This document shows positions 3,731 through 40,243 of a stretch of DNA of 40,243 nt, in pieces. The translations under genes were made by a program, and so were the position numbers. Positions within the stretch are counted from its first letter, which is position 1, and every line of letters starts with the position of its first letter. The notes beneath the pieces were generated by a model. That model saw nothing but the letters and a program-made list of their open reading frames with translations, was not told the origin of the DNA and searched no databases. Origin of the DNA: a virus; the IMG/VR virus record IMGVR_UViG_3300045988_112416; one strand, 5' to 3'.

Positions 3731-5701
3731 TTAATCTGTTATAAGTTCACACATGAAAGTTACCTTTGTATCTACATCTTCTGGTGAAAGAGTAAAAGAA
3801 AATCCGTCGTTCCCCATTCTTGAGTCGGCGGATGATATAATTCCATATGATTCTTCATCTAGCCTCTGCCATTTCCATTGAATATACGCAGAGCTTCCAT
3901 ACGTTTCATGTAACTTATCTATATCTGTTATCCTGTCTTTTCCGTGGTATATCACCACAGATAATACTGTTGATACTGCATTATTCTTGAATACCGTTCC
4001 TCTTGATGATTCTATTCTCAAAAGTGTGGTTATCTCATCTCTAACATTATCAACATCCTGCTTTATGTCGCTTAGAATATTTTCTATGTTTTGCTTGCCA
4101 AGGGTGAACTTATCTGCTGATATAGCAAGATGTGATTCTCCTTTATTGTCCACATAAAACATAACAAAATTATCCGAATCCCCGATGTTGAGCTGTCCGT
4201 CACTTCCAAGATATGCGCCCCTGGATGTATTGCTCACGCTTTCTTTTGTGCCAGAGAATAAACCACCATCAGCTATGTGCCAACCGCCGATTGTCGCCCC
4301 AAAGGCAACGAGATCGTCAACAGCAATCTTAGTTGCCGTGATAGACTTAGCTCTGATCACACCACCATCAAGGCTGTTGTAATCCGTCTGCTCTTTCTCT
4401 ACTGTATTACCATCAGTATTCAGCTTGTAATACAGTCCATCTTCACCTTTGATGACCAGCTTATCCGCTATGACTGTTCCACCCTTGATGCTGTCGCCTA
4501 AAATAGTCACTCCAACGAGCGTTCCTGTAACCTTCTGATCACCGACCACAACATCTTCAATCAGTCCTGACTTGGCGAAAAACTGCTCCAGTGCAGCCTT
4601 GCCTATATTTGCAAAGTCAATCTGAGCATACTTGATGTCTGCATCTGTCACATCCAGTTTATCTGCATACAAGCGTCTGTACACTTGCTGAACATAGCTC
4701 TCAGTTGGACTTACAAAAGTCGCTTCACTAAATTCTGTGCTGCCATATGATCCGATAGCCGTTATAAGCCCGCCATCATAGCTGAAATCGAGACTCATAA
4801 TCGGCACTGAATATGCTTTGCCATCTCTGCTCAATACCTGTACTATATCTCCAAGCTCAAGCCTCATATCACCAGCGAAACTGCATGTCGTTGGATGATA
4901 ACTCATATCCTTTAACTTTGCATACAGGCCATCAAGGATCTCCTGTGTCATCAGGAAATTGCTTGTTGCTATTCCTGTCAGCCCCTGTCCTGATTTAATT
5001 GTATTGTTCTCATCAACAGCACATGAGATATACCCAACCTGAAACACATTCTCCTGCACAACAACATCATCGAACGACCTGTTGAGTTCAACCGAATAAT
5101 CTGTTGTCGTGTACCACTTGAAATCAAGCACTCCATCCCTGTCAAATGTCGCAAACTTGCCGTCAAGGCCGGCTATAAAACCAACTACCTGTCTGTATGT
5201 GTAACCATCAAAGGTTTTTGATATACTGATACCTGACGGAGCATTCTTCATTCTGATACCTGTCAATGCCTCTATCTCTGCGCATACTTCCGATATATCA
5301 CAAGGATATAAGATATTAGACAGATAATATCCAGACATCTTGTAAGCCATCCTATCGTATGCAGTGAACGTGATCCTGCCATCATCAACAGTAGGTTTCT
5401 GTGCCATGAAGTATCCCATCTTGACATACTCTATACTGTCATCATCAAGCATGAGGCCTATCTCAAGCAGAATTTCCCTGCCGGTCAGACTTATATCCGG
5501 CTGTATCATTGTGATATCAAGCTGCGTGGAGCTGGCGCACCCTATCTCTAAGGTGCTTGTACCAGTTCCGGCTATACACTTCATATCAACACTGACAAAA
5601 CCGGATTCTATGACAGTGTCATCACATGTTATACGTGCTCTGAAGGTTCTGCCCTCTCCCATTATTCTATTGTCAAAGTCATCTGATACATTCGTGTACA
5701 T
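3731..5701 (-). CDS. Tail tip / minor structural protein (Tal-like)
   Basis: 656 aa, second gene downstream of the tape measure. Central coiled segment. C-terminal module VFKNNAVSTVLSVVIYHG...FMCELI is shared with the collagen-like fibre. Confidence 0.6.
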   Translation of the reverse strand: MYTNVSDDFDNRIMGEGRTFRARITCDDTVIESGFVSVDMKCIAGTGTSTLEIGCASSTQLDITMIQPDISLTGREILLEIGLMLDDDSIEYVKMGYFMAQKPTVDDGRITFTAYDRMAYKMSGYYLSNILYPCDISEVCAEIEALTGIRMKNAPSGISISKTFDGYTYRQVVGFIAGLDGKFATFDRDGVLDFKWYTTTDYSVELNRSFDDVVVQENVFQVGYISCAVDENNTIKSGQGLTGIATSNFLMTQEILDGLYAKLKDMSYHPTTCSFAGDMRLELGDIVQVLSRDGKAYSVPIMSLDFSYDGGLITAIGSYGSTEFSEATFVSPTESYVQQVYRRLYADKLDVTDADIKYAQIDFANIGKAALEQFFAKSGLIEDVVVGDQKVTGTLVGVTILGDSIKGGTVIADKLVIKGEDGLYYKLNTDGNTVEKEQTDYNSLDGGVIRAKSITATKIAVDDLVAFGATIGGWHIADGGLFSGTKESVSNTSRGAYLGSDGQLNIGDSDNFVMFYVDNKGESHLAISADKFTLGKQNIENILSDIKQDVDNVRDEITTLLRIESSRGTVFKNNAVSTVLSVVIYHGKDRITDIDKLHETYGSSAYIQWKWQRLDEESYGIISSADSRMGNDGFSFTLSPEDVDTKVTFMCELITD

Positions 5702-36370: not shown

Positions 36371-36577
36371 CTAAGCAAAAAAATACGCTGGATAGTCCTT
36401 TAAATCAATGTCAAGTAGTTCAGCCCACTTGTTCATCTCTTCCTGAGTAAATCCAGTTCTACAGTTCAACTTCTTTGATACAGAATTACTTGATAATCCC
36501 AATGCCTTGGCAAAATTACCCTGCGTTCCGTACTTCTCTATTATTCTTCCTCTCAGCTTGTCATACTGATATGGCAT
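36371..36577 (-). CDS. Cro-like HTH regulator
   Basis: LRGRIIEKYGTQGNFAKALGLSSNSVSKKLNCRTGFTQEE. The start is at ATG 36577 after GGAAGGAGG. Divergent from the CI-like gene. Confidence 0.7.
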   Translation of the reverse strand: MPYQYDKLRGRIIEKYGTQGNFAKALGLSSNSVSKKLNCRTGFTQEEMNKWAELLDIDLKDYPAYFFA

Positions 36578-36603
36578 TGTCGTACCTCCTTCCATTCGCA
36601 TTT

Positions 36604-36761: not shown

Positions 36762-37148
36762 ATGAAATGGCCAACAACTGCTAACCGATTAAAACAAGCT
36801 ATGAATAATATAAATATGAGTGCACAAGAACTTGCAGATAGAAGTGGAGTTAGCAAAGCCTCCATAAGCCAATATGTTAATGGTAGTCATAAACCATCTA
36901 ACATATCAGCACCGAAACTTGCAAAAGTTTTAAAAGTAAATGCTATGTGGTTGATGGGATTCGACATGGATGAAGAACCAGCCAAGCCTACATATTACTT
37001 TGACGATGAAACAGCTCAGAAAGCACAAGAGATATTCGAGAACAAACAGCTCTCTCTTCTCTTCGATGCCGCAAGGGATGCAGAGCCAGAGGACTTGGAG
37101 ACAGTTCACACAATGCTCATGGCTCTCAAGAATAAAGAGAAACGATAA
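36762..37148 (+). CDS. CI-like / ImmR-like XRE repressor (no S24 peptidase domain)
   Basis: LKQAMNNINMSAQELADRSGVSKASISQYVNGSHKPS. 128 aa. Followed by an ImmA-like gene. Confidence 0.8.
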   Translation: MKWPTTANRLKQAMNNINMSAQELADRSGVSKASISQYVNGSHKPSNISAPKLAKVLKVNAMWLMGFDMDEEPAKPTYYFDDETAQKAQEIFENKQLSLLFDAARDAEPEDLETVHTMLMALKNKEKR

Positions 37149-37205
37149 TGCACATAAAACATCCCACTGATTTTGTTATTGTTTTTCTGACTACATTTGA
37201 AAGGG

Positions 37206-37442
37206 ATGATTTCTTTGGAATATATAAACGTACAGATGATGGATTTAAAATCTACCAAGATTAAAGAAACCGTGACCAGTAACGAAGATGGCTCTTATAC
37301 TATCTTCCTCAATTCACGATTCACTCAGGAACAACTCAATGACGCTTATATCCACGCTATCGGACACATAGACAGGGACGACTTCAACAAAGGCTCTGCC
37401 TATGTTGTTGAGGCTTATGCACATGGGCTAACTGAATTGTAA
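37206..37442 (+). CDS. Short ImmA/IrrE-like protein with degenerate metal site (HAIGH instead of HExxH)
   Basis: DGSYTIFLNSRFTQEQLNDAYIHAIGHIDRDDF...VVEAYAHGL matches the ImmA core, but the catalytic Glu codon is GCT (Ala). The RBS is weak and the start is uncertain (37197 TTG, 37206 ATG or 37233 ATG). Confidence 0.5.
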   Translation: MISLEYINVQMMDLKSTKIKETVTSNEDGSYTIFLNSRFTQEQLNDAYIHAIGHIDRDDFNKGSAYVVEAYAHGLTEL

Positions 37443-37544
37443 ATTGGTAAAAACGCATTATCAAGGCTGCGAAAACAAGCCTCAAATTTTAAACATTTTG
37501 TTCATTATATACAAAAAAATGTTTAATTTTCTGAACTTTTAGTA

Positions 37545-37573
37545 TTGACTTTTGATTAAAGGGCATATAATAT
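37545..37573 (+). promoter_or_regulatory. Candidate sigma-70 promoter upstream of the NYN gene
   Basis: TTGACT (37545-37550), then either TATAAT at 37566-37571 (15-nt spacer) or TAATAT at 37568-37573 (17-nt spacer). Confidence 0.4.
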
Positions 37574-37601
37574 AAATATACAATATTTATAAGTTAATTT
37601 T

Positions 37602-37657
37602 GCCCTTGGCAACGTCCTCCCACTATAAGGGATGTGACAACGCCCTGGGCTTTTTTT
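37602..37657 (+). terminator. Long imperfect hairpin with GC-clamped base plus T7 tract in the NYN leader
   Basis: GCCC (37602-37605) pairs with GGGC (37647-37650). Inner paired blocks are GGC/GCC, GTC/GAC and TCCC/GGGA. T7 tract at 37651-37657. The RBS AGGAGG follows within 10 nt. Confidence 0.5.
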
Positions 37658-37677
37658 ATACCTAAGAGGAGGATATT

Positions 37678-38394
37678 ATGGGAAAAACGAACAACTTATT
37701 GCCAGATCAAAAACATCAAATAACTACCGCCATCCTAGTTGATGGAGGGTTTTATAGAAAAAGAGCCCGCTATCTATATGGTGACAAATCACCATCAGAA
37801 AGAGCGGACGAATTGAACGAATATTGCTATAAACATCTTCGTGATAAATATGAAAATAGATATTTGTACCGCATATTCTATTATGATTGTCCACCTGCAG
37901 AGAAGAATATATATAATCCCTTGACTAATAAGAGTGAAAATTTGAAAAAATCAAGCGAATATATCTGGATGACTGATTTTCTAAATGAATTAAAACATCA
38001 TAGAAAATTTGCCCTCAGATTAGGTCGCTTATCCGATACACAACTCAACTATCATCTTAACACTGAGGCTACCAAAAAACTTCTTCAAGGCAAATTGGAA
38101 GTTGAGGATATAAGTCAGCAAGATCTTGTTCTTAATATAGAGCAAAAAGGGGTTGATATGAGAATTGGTGTGGATATATCGTCTCTTGCTTTTAAAAACC
38201 AAGTAAATCAAATTGTTCTCATTTCTGGTGATAGTGATTTTGTGCCCGCCGCCAAACAGGCTCGAAGAGAAGGCATAGACTTTATACTGGATCCAATGGG
38301 TGCACCGATAAAAGAAGATTTATTTGAACACATAGATGGAATACGCACACCTAAATTGAAAACACCAAACAAGGTCGAGGAGATAGAAAAATAA
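37678..38394 (+). CDS. NYN-domain (PIN-like, LabA/DUF88-type) putative ribonuclease
   Basis: TAILVDGGFY (first acidic motif), QKGVDMRIGVDI, and IVLISGDSDFVPAAKQARREGIDFIL follow the NYN signature D...K.VD...D...SGDSDF. RBS is AAGAGGAGG. Confidence 0.7.
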   Translation: MGKTNNLLPDQKHQITTAILVDGGFYRKRARYLYGDKSPSERADELNEYCYKHLRDKYENRYLYRIFYYDCPPAEKNIYNPLTNKSENLKKSSEYIWMTDFLNELKHHRKFALRLGRLSDTQLNYHLNTEATKKLLQGKLEVEDISQQDLVLNIEQKGVDMRIGVDISSLAFKNQVNQIVLISGDSDFVPAAKQARREGIDFILDPMGAPIKEDLFEHIDGIRTPKLKTPNKVEEIEK

Positions 38395-38440
38395 TAAGGT
38401 AAAAAAACTATAAACCGTATGCTAATGATATTTTTTATAG

Positions 38441-38555
38441 TTGAATGCGAGATAGATTTTGATTATAATAACTATATTAAGCCGCCTATAGGGCACGAAT
38501 TTTATGTAGTTATTTTTCTTAATATTTTAGACCTCGCAGAAATGCGGGGTCTTTT
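38441..38555 (+). ncRNA. Candidate roughly 80-nt sRNA unit between the NYN gene and int
   Basis: Near-consensus promoter TTGAAT (38441-38446), 17 nt, TATAAT (38464-38469). No RBS or credible ORF. Ends at the strong terminator 38530-38555. Confidence 0.4.
38530..38555 (+). terminator. Rho-independent terminator
   Basis: GACCTCGC-AGAAAT-GCGGGGTC (one G-U pair) followed by TTTT. Confidence 0.75.
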
Positions 38556-38644
38556 ACGTTGTATGAACCTATTCCAATTTGGAAATAGTTCAAAATAAAA
38601 ATCCCCCAGGTGCTGGAACACCTGAGGGAAGTTACCCACAAACC

Positions 38645-38717
38645 GAAGGCTTATGACTAACGTTTCAACAAACTACATTATATCATAAGCCTTCTCATTT
38701 TAGTAGGCTTATTTTTT
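38645..38717 (+). promoter_or_regulatory. Three-segment mutually exclusive hairpin element in the int leader
   Basis: Segment 1 GAAGGCTTATGA (38645-38656) is perfectly complementary to segment 2 TCATAAGCCTTC (38683-38694). Segment 2 also pairs with segment 3 AGGCTTAT (38705-38712), which is followed by T5. Confidence 0.45.
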
Positions 38718-38745
38718 ATGCCTATTTTTAGGAAGGATGATCTAT

Positions 38746-39996
38746 ATGAAGATACTTACAAGAAATAGGAACAAGAACAAATTCTATAAAGACGGCAGAC
38801 CCAAACCAGCAAACTGGGAATACCGCTTTGAAACAGCATCCATAGGTGGTAAGCGATACCATCACAGTGAATCTGGTTTCAATACCAAAAAGGATGCGCT
38901 TGATGCCGGTACTGCTGCCCTTGCAGAATATAACAAGTCTGGACAGATTTTTACCCCATCTGATATGTCTTTCTCTGACTATCTTGATTATTGGCTTGAT
39001 ACATACTGCAAGACAAATCTTGCCCAGAGCACATGTGACACTTATCGAAAGAGAATCAATAACCACATCCGCCCTACTCTCGGTGAATATTACTTAAAAT
39101 CAATTACACCTGCTGCACTTCAGGATCTCATAAATGAGAAATTTAACTCCGGGTATTCACGCAATACCTTGACCGATCTGAAAGGTATACTTACTGGTGC
39201 ATTTTCTTATGCTGTGGAACCATGCCGGTATATTGCTCAGAGTCCAGCTATATATATAAAGCTCCCTCAGCCAAGGGCAACCTCTGAAGATGTTCCGACA
39301 AGGAAAAAAATCCGCCGTGTTGTCACTCATGAAGAATGGAATCATATAATGGCCAGATTCCCAAAAGGGTCTACTGCTCATATACCTCTGATCCTTGGTT
39401 ATAGATGTGGTCTCCGCATCAGTGAGGCATTTGCCATCACATGGTCCGATATTGATTTTGATAAGGGTACACTATCTGTAAACCGACAGGTGCAGAAATA
39501 CGATGGTGACAAGCTATACACTATATGTAACCCCAAATACGACAGCTTCAGGACAATATCCCTTGACACAAAAACCATCGAACTCTTACAGGAAGAAAAA
39601 GATCACCAGGAGAAAGCCAAACTGTTTTATAGAGAGTTCCATCGCCAGGCAGGCGTTGATAAAGATAACCATATTGTTATGGATGATCCAAACGCTGAAC
39701 CTATGGAATTTGTTACCCAAAGAGAAAATGGGGAATATATAAAGCCAGACATAATGAAACATGTTAGCCGTGTAATCCACGGCAAGGCTACTAAGAATGG
39801 AATAGCTATATCCGAAGATTGGGATTTTCATTCACTAAGACACACACATGCAACCATACTTCTTGAAAAAGGTGTACAAATGCCTATGATACAATACAGA
39901 CTCGGACATACTGATGTTGAAATAACTGAAAGATATGTTCACCCTACAACTGCCATGAATGTTCAGGTAGAAGATATAATAAATGAGCTATATTAA
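38746..39996 (+). CDS. int: Tyrosine recombinase / phage integrase with AP2-like arm-binding N-terminal domain
   Basis: C-terminal HSLRHTHATILLEKGV...LGHTDVEITERYVH (R-H-R-Y catalytic pattern). N-terminal WEYRFETASIGGKRYHHSESGFNTKKDALDAG. The start is at ATG 38746, 8 nt after GGAAGGA. Confidence 0.9.
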   Translation: MKILTRNRNKNKFYKDGRPKPANWEYRFETASIGGKRYHHSESGFNTKKDALDAGTAALAEYNKSGQIFTPSDMSFSDYLDYWLDTYCKTNLAQSTCDTYRKRINNHIRPTLGEYYLKSITPAALQDLINEKFNSGYSRNTLTDLKGILTGAFSYAVEPCRYIAQSPAIYIKLPQPRATSEDVPTRKKIRRVVTHEEWNHIMARFPKGSTAHIPLILGYRCGLRISEAFAITWSDIDFDKGTLSVNRQVQKYDGDKLYTICNPKYDSFRTISLDTKTIELLQEEKDHQEKAKLFYREFHRQAGVDKDNHIVMDDPNAEPMEFVTQRENGEYIKPDIMKHVSRVIHGKATKNGIAISEDWDFHSLRHTHATILLEKGVQMPMIQYRLGHTDVEITERYVHPTTAMNVQVEDIINELY

Positions 39997-40015
39997 ATAT
40001 AAAAAATCCACATTT

Positions 40016-40108
40016 TTTGTCCACGTGTCCACGCAAGATTACGTGGACAAATTTTTTTACGTGGACAAAATGTGGACAAAAACACATTTTATACTGAATG
40101 TGGACAAG
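40016..40108. promoter_or_regulatory. Arm-type integrase binding site cluster, right arm (about 6 GTGGACA(A) units in both orientations)
   Basis: TTTGTCCACGTGTCCACG (inverted pair, 40016-40033), then CGTGGACAA (40042), CGTGGACAAAA (40060), TGTGGACAAA (40071) and TGTGGACAA (40099). Confidence 0.7.
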
Positions 40109-40159
40109 TTTTTGGAAAATTCTGAATTATCTCACAATTCCCCAAAGCCTTGATTTTAC

Positions 40160-40243
40160 TTAGAATTTACCAGCGTTAGCAGCTTCCTCAACAGAAACAG
40201 CTACAGCAACTGTAGCACCAACCATAGGGTTGTTACCCATTCC
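40160..40243 (-). CDS. 3' end of a host CDS entering from the right flank (partial, product not recognised)
   Basis: - strand frame ...GMGNNPMVGATVAVAVSVEEAANAGKF-stop. The last 2 codons and the TAA (40162-40160) are supplied by phage DNA. Confidence 0.5.
   Translation of the reverse strand, partial: GMGNNPMVGATVAVAVSVEEAANAGKF
40170..40243. repeat. Right copy of att core direct repeat
   Basis: Identical to 1-74. Confidence 0.9.

Follow-up and report, generated by a model that had tools for sequence, protein, structure and literature searches.

What does a single nuclease-like gene, lying between the repressor and the integrase of a prophage and preceded by a promoter, a hairpin and a run of T residues, do for the element that carries it? 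The gene encodes a 238-residue protein with a NYN domain and lies in a 40,243-nt stretch of DNA (IMG/VR record IMGVR_UViG_3300045988_112416; hereafter the window, to whose full length all coordinates refer), and labels such as L005 denote related loci or contigs that were compared with the window. As judged from the sequences of its relatives, the leader RNA specified by the promoter and the hairpin is almost certainly real and tied to the NYN gene. The reading that we favour, tentatively and by analogy with known loci, is that the two may form a type III-like toxin-antitoxin (TA) module, with the RNA as antitoxin or attenuator and the NYN protein as toxin, which would be expressed in the lysogen in the manner of the AbiF-RCd22 system. 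The features discussed are collected in Table 1.

By its sequence, the 238-residue protein is a NYN-domain protein and a predicted PIN-like, metal-dependent ribonuclease (RNase). It scored 43.4 bits against the Pfam NYN family PF01936 (cut-off, 24.2), in a match confined to residues 151-201, and the acidic motifs VDGGF, KGVDMRIGVDI and SGDSDF are present in the translation, so that the NYN identity which an earlier note on this DNA had read from these motifs holds. All of the listed homologues carry PF01936, and D22, D70, D160, D166, D185, D187, D201 and D205 are invariant acidic residues in the homologue alignments; the PIN-like active-site acids D22 (VDGGF), D160, D185 and D187 (GDSDF) are invariant in both protein alignments. 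The best viral fold matches (BFVD) of an AlphaFold2 model of the protein, which had a predicted local distance difference test score (pLDDT) of 84, are LabA-like/NYN proteins, and these matches are weak (E 8e-6 to 5e-5, template-modelling score 0.4-0.57). A sequence search of PDB gave nothing usable, only 2qip at E 0.15. When Pfam, NCBIfam and PADLOC were searched with the protein, NYN matches only were obtained, and no match to ToxN/AbiQ, CptN, TenpN or Abi_2. At 50% identity and E <= 1e-30, the family falls into 187 clusters, whose members are almost all single-domain proteins of 200-280 residues. The protein matches phrog_5783 with E 2.5e-88, a PHROG entry of unknown function; the family is already annotated, but uncharacterised.

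The leader of the window begins with a promoter that has an alternative -10 element, TATAAT, at 37566-37571. The outer helix of the main hairpin, P2, comprises 9 bp (GCCCTTGGC with GCCCTGGGC, including two mismatches) and is followed inward by a 3x3 internal loop (AAC/AAC), a 3-bp middle helix, a bulged C, an inner helix (TCCC/GGGA) and the loop ACTATAA. P2 and the T7 tract together make up an intrinsic-terminator-like element ahead of the NYN start codon. Since the 20-nt gap from the U-tract to the start codon is too short for a second promoter, the RNA and the NYN gene share one promoter, with the terminator between them.

One could argue that this arrangement has no particular meaning, and that an ordinary moron happens to have beside it a promoter-like site arisen by chance and the terminator that ends the immunity operon upstream. 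The window taken by itself gives the argument some footing, in that promoter-like sites in the AT-rich stretch (22, against 14.5 +/- 4.3 in shuffled sequences) are not above chance and the folding energy of the upstream hairpin alone is unremarkable (z = -1.7). Terminator-like sites in the same stretch are enriched (9, against 2.6 +/- 1.6 in shuffles).

The related loci speak against such an accident. Between the window and L006, identity is 85.7% across 36983-38727, yet the leader is ~99% identical, and the stretch from promoter to ribosome-binding site (RBS) is nearly invariant among the window, L005 and L006 despite diverged coding DNA. The same hairpin, with a different sequence, stands upstream of distant homologues in gut prophages, in the Dorea phage DO134P1 and in the Streptococcus phage Javan85. 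When 93 sources were searched with a covariance model, R1, built from seven sequences (the window and six relatives), 85 had the element on the + strand, ending immediately ahead of the NYN gene (E < 5e-5); of 78 further viral contigs, 74 had it before the NYN gene as well (E <= 0.01). The co-occurrence of NYN homologues with an upstream RNA block, to which the earlier note had pointed, is thus found in ~93% of loci. Firmicutes, Actinobacteria and Spirochaetes are among the hosts, which range over Lachnospiraceae, Oscillospiraceae, Streptococcus, Staphylococcus, Brevibacterium, Collinsella, Treponema, Fibrobacter, Akkermansia, Odoribacter and a deltaproteobacterial metagenome-assembled genome. 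Most of the loci missed by R1 have a divergent hairpin in the same place (Corynebacterium, Microbacteriaceae, Varibaculum, E. coli and Burkholderia); L110 and L120 had too short an upstream sequence to be judged, and L060 and L095 were ambiguous.

Covariation was scored in an alignment of 84 distinct sequences fitted to model R1. Standard pairs were formed in 90% of the cells, and all 16 pairs had compensatory changes. Cells in which both sides had changed numbered 317, against 95 +/- 9 in shuffles (none of 500 reached 317) and 26-52 when the partners were slid by 1-3 columns. A model-free check with MAFFT and RNAalifold returned the same helices, with 11 of 16 pairs showing compensatory changes when 7 sequences were aligned and 15 of 15 when 37 were, and the helix pairs are the column pairs of highest mutual information. 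G-U pairs in the P2 alignment point to an RNA of the + strand. Of the 84 loci, 59 have a promoter with a score of 10 or more out of 12, and the -10 element mostly ends 27-37 nt before the main hairpin; T occupies the first five positions after the stem in 76-96% of the 84 sequences; and the distance from the end of the stem to the start codon is mostly 20-30 nt in the relatives, with the SD (Shine-Dalgarno) sequence between. It is this conservation and covariation in other loci, and not folding energy, that raises the upstream hairpin above chance in sequence terms. Promoter, hairpin, loops and spacing are conserved in more than 150 loci with different upstream genes, every pair covaries, and a discrete RNA transcript has been detected in S. 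aureus (PMC5826253), so that a chance juxtaposition is hardly credible. The upstream promoter-hairpin-T-tract unit that the earlier note had described is a conserved structured RNA tied to the NYN gene.

In the relatives, the consensus of P2 starts with a 9-bp outer helix and an internal loop whose 5' and 3' strands read AGUA and GAA, respectively, in most copies; a 3-bp helix and a bulged C then lead to the inner helix (UCCC/GGGA), which closes a 7-nt apical loop, A(C/A)N-AUA-R, with invariant A and U. The sarcin-ricin (bulged-G) motif has AGUA/GAA as its sequence signature, and motifs of this kind typically serve as platforms for protein binding. The internal loop of the Rfam family RF03535 (TEG147), to which we return below, was called a sarcin-ricin motif by JAR3D in a 2026 survey (PMC13085918). 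The AAC/AAC loop of the window is common to its closest relatives, L005, L006 and L013, and other A-rich loops are found in L014 and L015. Between the start of the RNA and P2, most relatives have a 5' hairpin, P1, often of the form GUGUAAC...GUUACAC and highly variable in sequence, which is joined to P2 by a (G)UUAA-rich linker. P1 was not recovered by RNAalifold on the MAFFT alignment because its loop lengths vary; it was therefore scored sequence by sequence against shuffles, and ungapped stems of the P1 type of at least 7 bp are present in 61% of loci, compared with 17.5% of shuffles. L022 has two tandem leader copies (2168-2234 and 2407-2475) before one NYN gene, each with a promoter-like site.

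Two further roles for parts of the hairpin were considered and rejected. An anti-SD role, in which TCCTCC of the hairpin would pair with GGAGG of the gene, is contradicted by the free covariation of the inner helix (UCCC, CCCC, UCUC, CCUC or UUCC with their partners), in which the anti-SD sequence is not kept. A pseudoknot between linker and apical loop found no column pair outside the helices that combines high mutual information with pairing. In the actinobacterial loci L065, L066, L086 and L097, a high-GC hairpin lies ~60-110 nt upstream of the NYN gene, with a CGUU / GAUG internal loop and often without a clear U-tract; given these copies, the terminator function of the hairpin may not be universal.

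Is the leader RNA new? The earlier note had known of no described phage-defence or TA system built on a lone NYN protein with such RNAs; the RNA itself is not wholly undescribed. Typical copies are already in Rfam as TEG147: the model, whose Rfam type is Cis-reg, matches typical relatives of the window (L094, 57.6 bits; L075, 56.3 bits; gathering score, 56.1) and reaches 40-53 bits, below threshold, in three more loci. TEG147 (Teg147 = sRNA85 = srn_0960) is the same hairpin as the NYN leader, and its Rfam model is narrow and misses most copies, including that of the window. In S. aureus, the NYN homologue P0310 (229 residues, in a cluster of 306 sequences) has TEG147 directly upstream of its start codon (86.6 bits at L342 3923-3982), at the site where R1 scores 42.8 bits (3919-3986). 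This locus is in an island that carries ssl genes (nuSa-alpha), ~3.5 kb from a GmrSD-type gene. A single alignment with shared structure covers the window-type and the S. aureus TEG147 copies; by this sequence comparison, the leader RNA of the window has the same hairpin architecture and position as the TEG147 members. Teg147 has been described as a bona fide 60-nt small RNA (sRNA) expressed in strain HG003, with a G+C content above 40% that suggests horizontal origin (PMC5826253), and as expressed from a genomic island (PMC3053349); the Rfam family was created during a course (PMC7779021). The accumulation of a short RNA is therefore an experimental fact for the homologous S. aureus locus, shown by others. 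The searchable papers that mention Teg147 give no function and no link to NYN or prophages; a search of the literature for NYN with prophage, defence or TA, for Teg147 and for the S. aureus locus found no functional study. We found no description in the searchable literature of the RNA-NYN pairing, its breadth, its prophage niche or its gene-less copies.

How might the RNA and the protein work together? In the module that we favour, the constitutive sigma-70-type promoter (37545-37573) would start transcription, and most transcripts would stop at the hairpin and U-tract (37602-37657), yielding an abundant ~80-nt RNA of the TEG147 family; rare read-through to the SD sequence and the start codon 20 nt farther on would give little NYN protein. 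With a strong promoter and a terminator, the RNA would exceed the protein. The leader RNA would thereby throttle the NYN gene in cis and, as a type III-like antitoxin made of one structured unit without tandem repeats, would bind and silence NYN in trans. If the supply of RNA failed or the RNA were displaced, as when another phage infects or the prophage is lost, free NYN would cut cellular or phage RNA, and the outcome would be abortive infection or exclusion, addiction to the prophage, or both. The parts of this scheme are not equally firm. Attenuation of the NYN gene by the RNA is likely, with an efficiency of termination that we infer; an anti-phage or addiction role of the module appears to us evenly balanced; and neutralisation of the NYN protein by the RNA, for which binding and toxicity are both predicted, falls slightly short of an even prospect.

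Several observations speak for the RNA-NYN module as a TA-like unit. The co-inheritance of RNA and NYN gene is near-obligate across phyla, the RNA has a conserved internal loop of a protein-binding type, the RNA differs where the protein clade differs, and it is duplicated in tandem in L022. Gene-less RNA is common and a NYN gene is seldom without an upstream hairpin, as would be expected of orphan antitoxins, and the genomic niche is of the defence/addiction type. The likeness to type III TA and abortive-infection loci that the earlier note had drawn is borne out by the architecture, namely promoter, structured RNA, terminator and toxin-like RNase, for which AbiF-RCd22 provides an established analogue free of repeats (PMC12373285).

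The most serious competitor is a purely cis-regulatory leader, an attenuator that is riboswitch-like or controlled by a protein or a phage signal and that keeps NYN off until a trigger opens the terminator, with no binding of NYN; the protein may still be a defence or exclusion effector in that case. The fixed order of promoter, hairpin, U-tract, SD sequence and start codon agrees with this explanation, as does the Cis-reg class of TEG147 in Rfam, and what the conserved loops bind could be something other than NYN, either a ligand or a factor. A riboswitch-like role of RCd22 has also been discussed by the authors of the AbiF study (PMC12373285). However, no anti-terminator pairing and no covarying long-range pair beyond the hairpin were found, and the RNA differs in the E. 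coli and Burkholderia protein clades, which fits a co-evolving partner better than a universal ligand. A further objection comes from strong-promoter copies without a downstream gene and from opposite-strand copies beside int without NYN, which have no cis target. We consider such a leader unlikely, if less so than the remaining alternatives.

The gene-less copies were sought by an exact-pattern scan of the conserved core. In viral contigs, the 24 pattern stretches comprised 11 with NYN downstream, ~9 genuine hairpins without NYN and 4 chance matches in coding regions; among 60 distinct genuine motifs in metagenome contigs, 42 had NYN downstream, 16 did not and 2 were cut off. About one-quarter of the copies in these scans are thus without a NYN gene. 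Several of them retain promoters of 10-12 out of 12 and the 5' hairpin, and some adjoin a serine recombinase or HicAB where their relatives have NYN. Some identical gene-less cores recur in different flanks. Eight contigs (L206, L213, L229, L230, L233, L246, L247 and L251) carry a P2/TEG147-type hairpin and U-tract on the opposite strand, where they immediately follow the int-proximal hairpin described below, and no NYN gene is present in the fetched DNA of these contigs. There the hairpin stands in place of promoter and P1, and the window has the same neighbourhood minus the hairpin. Gene-less copies cannot act as cis-regulators; they could be orphan antitoxins, decoys or remnants.

One scenario is that the RNA doubles as a mobile countermeasure, such that prophages with NYN restrain their own nuclease, and phages with the RNA alone disarm a resident NYN; we think this improbable. 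The carriers of RNA alone would, with the same low probability, express it from a strong promoter or fused to the int-proximal RNA on the opposite strand. A phage with RNA mimics is said, by Blower et al. in 2012, to escape ToxIN, and such mimics resemble, by analogy, the gene-less RNA copies found here. If the countermeasure scenario were true, it would amount to an arms race over a single structured RNA in many phyla, including S. aureus and Shiga-toxin E. coli.

The same data bear on another scenario, in which RNA and protein form an effector complex and the RNA is a cofactor or guide for NYN activity or target choice, not an inhibitor, which would parallel the proposed lineage from AbiF and its non-coding RNA to Cas13. 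The tight co-inheritance across phyla is consistent with this, as are the conserved single-stranded apical loop A(C/A)N-AUA-R and linker (G)UUAA, and AbiF is in a stable complex with its own non-coding RNA (PMC12373285). The conserved single-stranded stretches are, however, short and nearly invariant across hosts, which makes them unlikely guides, and an inhibitor or decoy would account for the common gene-less RNA more readily than a cofactor would. We regard this scenario as quite improbable.

The genomic neighbourhoods of the RNA-NYN pair suggest yet another function. Of 131 non-redundant loci, 81 have a co-oriented recombinase gene downstream (58 tyrosine, 23 serine), at a median gap of ~140 nt. 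It might be supposed that the NYN RNase tunes phage or host transcripts (e.g., int/xis or immunity mRNAs) in the lysogen or at induction, and that the leader autoregulates NYN, for instance as a NYN substrate. We doubt both parts of this proposal. Very often the NYN gene is directly upstream of, and co-oriented with, the recombinase gene, and it lies downstream of the repressor, as the proposal would have it. Yet the same RNA is kept away from recombinases in the S. aureus nuSa-alpha island and in L014, where the NYN gene is next to chromosomal genes with the leader RNA kept, and the recombinase families are unrelated, which argues for a cargo hotspot and not for functional pairing. In the E. 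coli phage ev099 (L003 3860-4849), again not beside a recombinase, and by similarity in 2B8 and 48 Stx2a phages, the NYN gene lies between cI and N, the position of rexAB in lambda. The NYN protein of this E. coli clade has 38% identity, and the ev099 locus has its own promoter and a different long hairpin with T7 before the start codon, that is, the same design with another RNA. DNA matching the E. coli NYN locus is present in 275 of 5426 complete E. coli genomes, 74 of which hold at least 80% of the query. The neighbours of the NYN gene are a TA pair and the integrase in the P2-like phage phiE202 and HicAB in L015, and the upstream neighbours vary (helix-turn-helix (HTH) regulators, DUF4352, an ion-channel protein and others). 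The niche of the module is that of exclusion and addiction cargo expressed in lysogens.

Against the TA-like module that we favour stand the following points. In the fold search of PDB with the NYN model, there was no match at E <= 0.001, so that the nuclease assignment draws on the Pfam hidden Markov model, the conserved acids and the weak viral fold matches. PADLOC-DB 2.0 gave no full-length match, only HEC-09 (21.2 bits) and a NYN model (20.5 bits) over ~45 residues of the NYN core, and the protein is not tied by this result to a validated defence system. The copy in the window itself is atypical: Rfam gave no match on the window at gathering scores or at E <= 10, with both TEG147 and abiF unmatched, which leaves this copy outside TEG147; P1 is weak or absent, its AU-only stem (37572-37590) overlapping the -10 element; and the AGUA/GAA signature is replaced by AAC/AAC. 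The leader consists of one unit and the protein does not have a ToxN-like fold, so that it is in layout only that the module resembles type III TA. For every member of the family, toxicity, RNA-protein contact and phage resistance are purely predicted. The gene-less copies could be mere deletion remnants, as the truncated 150-residue NYN of L316 illustrates. Finally, a purely cis-acting attenuator fits the linkage, promoter, U-tract and spacing equally well.

If RNA and protein do act as toxin and antitoxin, they would constitute a new RNA-protein TA/abortive-infection family, one in which both the toxin fold (NYN) and the single-unit RNA antitoxin are new. The family would be common in human-gut prophages and present in pathogens as well, in the S. 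aureus nuSa-alpha island, in Stx2a phages and in the complete E. coli genomes counted above. It would supply a function for phrog_5783 and for Teg147, which has figured among the listed sRNAs of S. aureus since 2010 with none assigned, and the "structured RNA + terminator + RNase" design of AbiF-RCd22 would recur with unrelated parts. Even as a cis-attenuator only, the leader would be a well-supported class of regulatory RNA across phyla with a predicted sarcin-ricin module.

The earlier note had the NYN gene bracketed by two RNA units, and this part of its description has to be given up. The downstream unit (unit 2) has a promoter, TTGAAT-17-TATAAT, at 38441-38469 and a terminator at 38529-38552, GACCTCGCAGAAATGCGGGGTC, followed by TTTT; it folds with z = -3.5 and is nearly invariant in L005 and L006. 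Among the NYN loci, it is absent from all but these closest relatives. Its exact core was found in only three viral contigs, and three of its seven sequence variants are in contigs without NYN. Unit 2 as a second NYN partner is ruled out by this restricted distribution and by its presence in phages without NYN, and since it is not a NYN partner, the two-RNA bracketing is coincidental. The unit has no Rfam match. By eye, its core (CCUAUAGGGC) may be complementary to the apical region of the leader, in a pairing that needs bulges and is without comparative support. L005 has an insertion of ~153 nt (~3895-4050, corresponding to ~38553 of the window) at the 3' side of the unit 2 terminator, which duplicates CGGGGTCTTTTACGTT and adds both another hairpin and a stretch that contains TTGACT; a small mobile element or a recombination scar may account for it. 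Between unit 2 and the int-proximal block, at 38565-38591, lies a perfect 11-bp inverted repeat, GAACCTATTCC-AATT-TGGAAATAGTTC, which is kept in L005 and partly in L216.

The int-proximal block folds on the - strand with z = -6.4 into hairpin A (38645-38656 / 38683-38694) and a terminator hairpin B (38602-38629), which is followed by a U-run. The block occurs upstream of at least 5 different integrase N-termini in at least 50 gut viral contigs, with a variable other side, and TGATATAAT is invariant inside it. The substitutions in the block are G-U when read on the - strand and A-C when read on the + strand, and a compensatory double change, from GGTG/CACC to GATG/CATC, is present in hairpin B. 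The sequence data favour the view that the block encodes a - strand RNA of ~95 nt, ending with 38602-38629 and the U-run. On the + strand, AUAAGCCU can pair with either of two AGGCUUAU segments, with a T-run before int, in an attenuator-like arrangement. No Rfam match was found for the block. Unit 2 and the int-proximal block are a real integrase-proximal non-coding cluster and not part of the NYN module.

The window as a whole is a prophage. Its - strand encodes a lysin, a 1203-residue tape-measure-like protein, an SPP1-type portal, a terminase, a methylase/SNF2 protein and RecT, and the lysogeny block at the right end, with the HTH repressor, an 81-residue open reading frame (ORF), the NYN gene and the tyrosine integrase, is on the + strand. 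The earlier note had thus correctly assigned the NYN gene to the lysogeny strand, and its description of low-GC cargo between the repressor module and the integrase agrees with the base composition: G+C is 0.318 and 0.356 in 37501-38500, against ~0.42-0.47 across most of 1-34500 (~0.44 elsewhere). With its own promoter (37545) and terminator (38529), deviant G+C, position in a cargo hotspot and variable neighbours, the locus has the properties of a moron. L005 is 98% identical to the window in 37374-38585 and 92% identical in 38545-38739, with no similarity outside. The 81-residue ORF is shared in its entirety with L006, and its 3' end is common to the window and L005. Tandem Repeats Finder found no tandem repeats in 37300-38800, and no tRNA genes were found at the locus. 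Directly 3' of int, at 39997-40130, there are at least five GTGGACA(A) / TGTCCAC repeats (GTGGACAA motifs), which are probably integrase arm-type sites at the end of the prophage.

Table 1. Features of the window and related RNA copies (coordinates in the 40,243-nt window unless a locus label is given)
Feature	Position	Strand	Remarks
DUF739 Cro-like gene	36371-36601	-	Opposite the HTH repressor
HTH repressor	36762-37148	+	
81-residue ORF	37197-37442	+	phrog_20886; no Pfam match; motif HAIGHIDRDDF
Sigma-70-type promoter of leader RNA/NYN transcript	37545-37573	+	TTGACT-17-TAATAT
Predicted ~80-nt leader RNA, TEG147-like	37578-37657	+	Start deduced from the promoter; 3' end is the U-tract
Main hairpin P2	37602-37650	+	Covariance model R1, 80.7 bits
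U-tract T7	37651-37657	+	Directly after P2; 20 nt before the start codon
SD sequence of NYN gene	37666-37673	+	GAGGAGGA
NYN-domain protein, stand-alone, 238 residues	37678-38394	+	Pfam PF01936, phrog_5783
Unit 2, sRNA-like	38441-38556	+	Promoter, ~80-nt RNA with conserved core CUAUAGGGCACGAAU, terminator
Int-proximal structured block, ~140 nt	38595-38736	- (better fold)	Directly upstream of int
Tyrosine integrase (int)	38737-39996	+	
Host GGGtGRT-family gene, 3' end	40160-40243	-	Right end of the window
Gene-less copies of the leader RNA	L183, L188, L189, L190/L197, L191, L199, L201 and 16 metagenome loci (e.g., L259, L269, L304, L306, L330)		

How does the RNA-NYN pair compare with systems that have been characterised? 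With lambda RexAB and other morons it shares the position downstream of the repressor, the lysogeny strand, an own promoter and a lower G+C; the proteins are unrelated, RexAB has no RNA partner, and exclusion has been shown for Rex and is only proposed for NYN. With Rae1/YacP, LabA, MARF1 and CRISPR-associated NYN proteins it shares the NYN Pfam domain and its conserved aspartates. This family differs from the characterised NYN proteins in a beta-rich insertion of ~75 residues, in being phage-borne with a dedicated RNA, and in having no significant PDB relative by sequence or fold. We know of no characterised NYN protein with such a leader RNA.

The type III TA systems (ToxIN, CptIN and TenpIN) also consist of a promoter, an RNA, a terminator that sets the ratio of RNA to toxin and an endoribonuclease, and they have an abortive-infection role on mobile elements, of which a counterpart is proposed here. 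In contrast to their RNAs, the NYN leader is a single hairpin unit without tandem direct repeats (only L022 has two copies, and these are separate), and the NYN protein does not belong to the ToxN/AbiQ, CptN or TenpN families. ToxI-type tandem repeats were considered as the basis of the leader and discarded, none having been found by Tandem Repeats Finder in the region given above.

The closest parallel is RCd22-abiF of the C. difficile prophage phi027, in which a SigA promoter drives a structured RNA of ~100 nt that ends at a Rho-independent terminator, and read-through makes a toxic RNase; RCd22 acts in cis to reduce the expression of AbiF and in trans to neutralise the protein, to which it binds directly (PMC12373285). 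Both systems are prophage-borne and have promoter, structured RNA, terminator, RBS and RNase gene in this order (PMC12373285), and in both the RNA units are structured motifs and not processed repeats of the ToxI type. The short RNA is the main product of the AbiF system and read-through gives the toxin, and we propose the same for the NYN module. They differ in the toxin, which is Abi_2/HEPN in one and NYN/PIN-like in the other, and in the RNA family, there being neither an abiF (RF03085) match in the window nor an Abi_2 match. Toxicity, neutralisation in cis and trans, and binding have been shown for AbiF-RCd22, whereas for the NYN module they are predicted. In its layout the NYN module is a variant of the type III-like "structured RNA + RNase" design and not a separate category.

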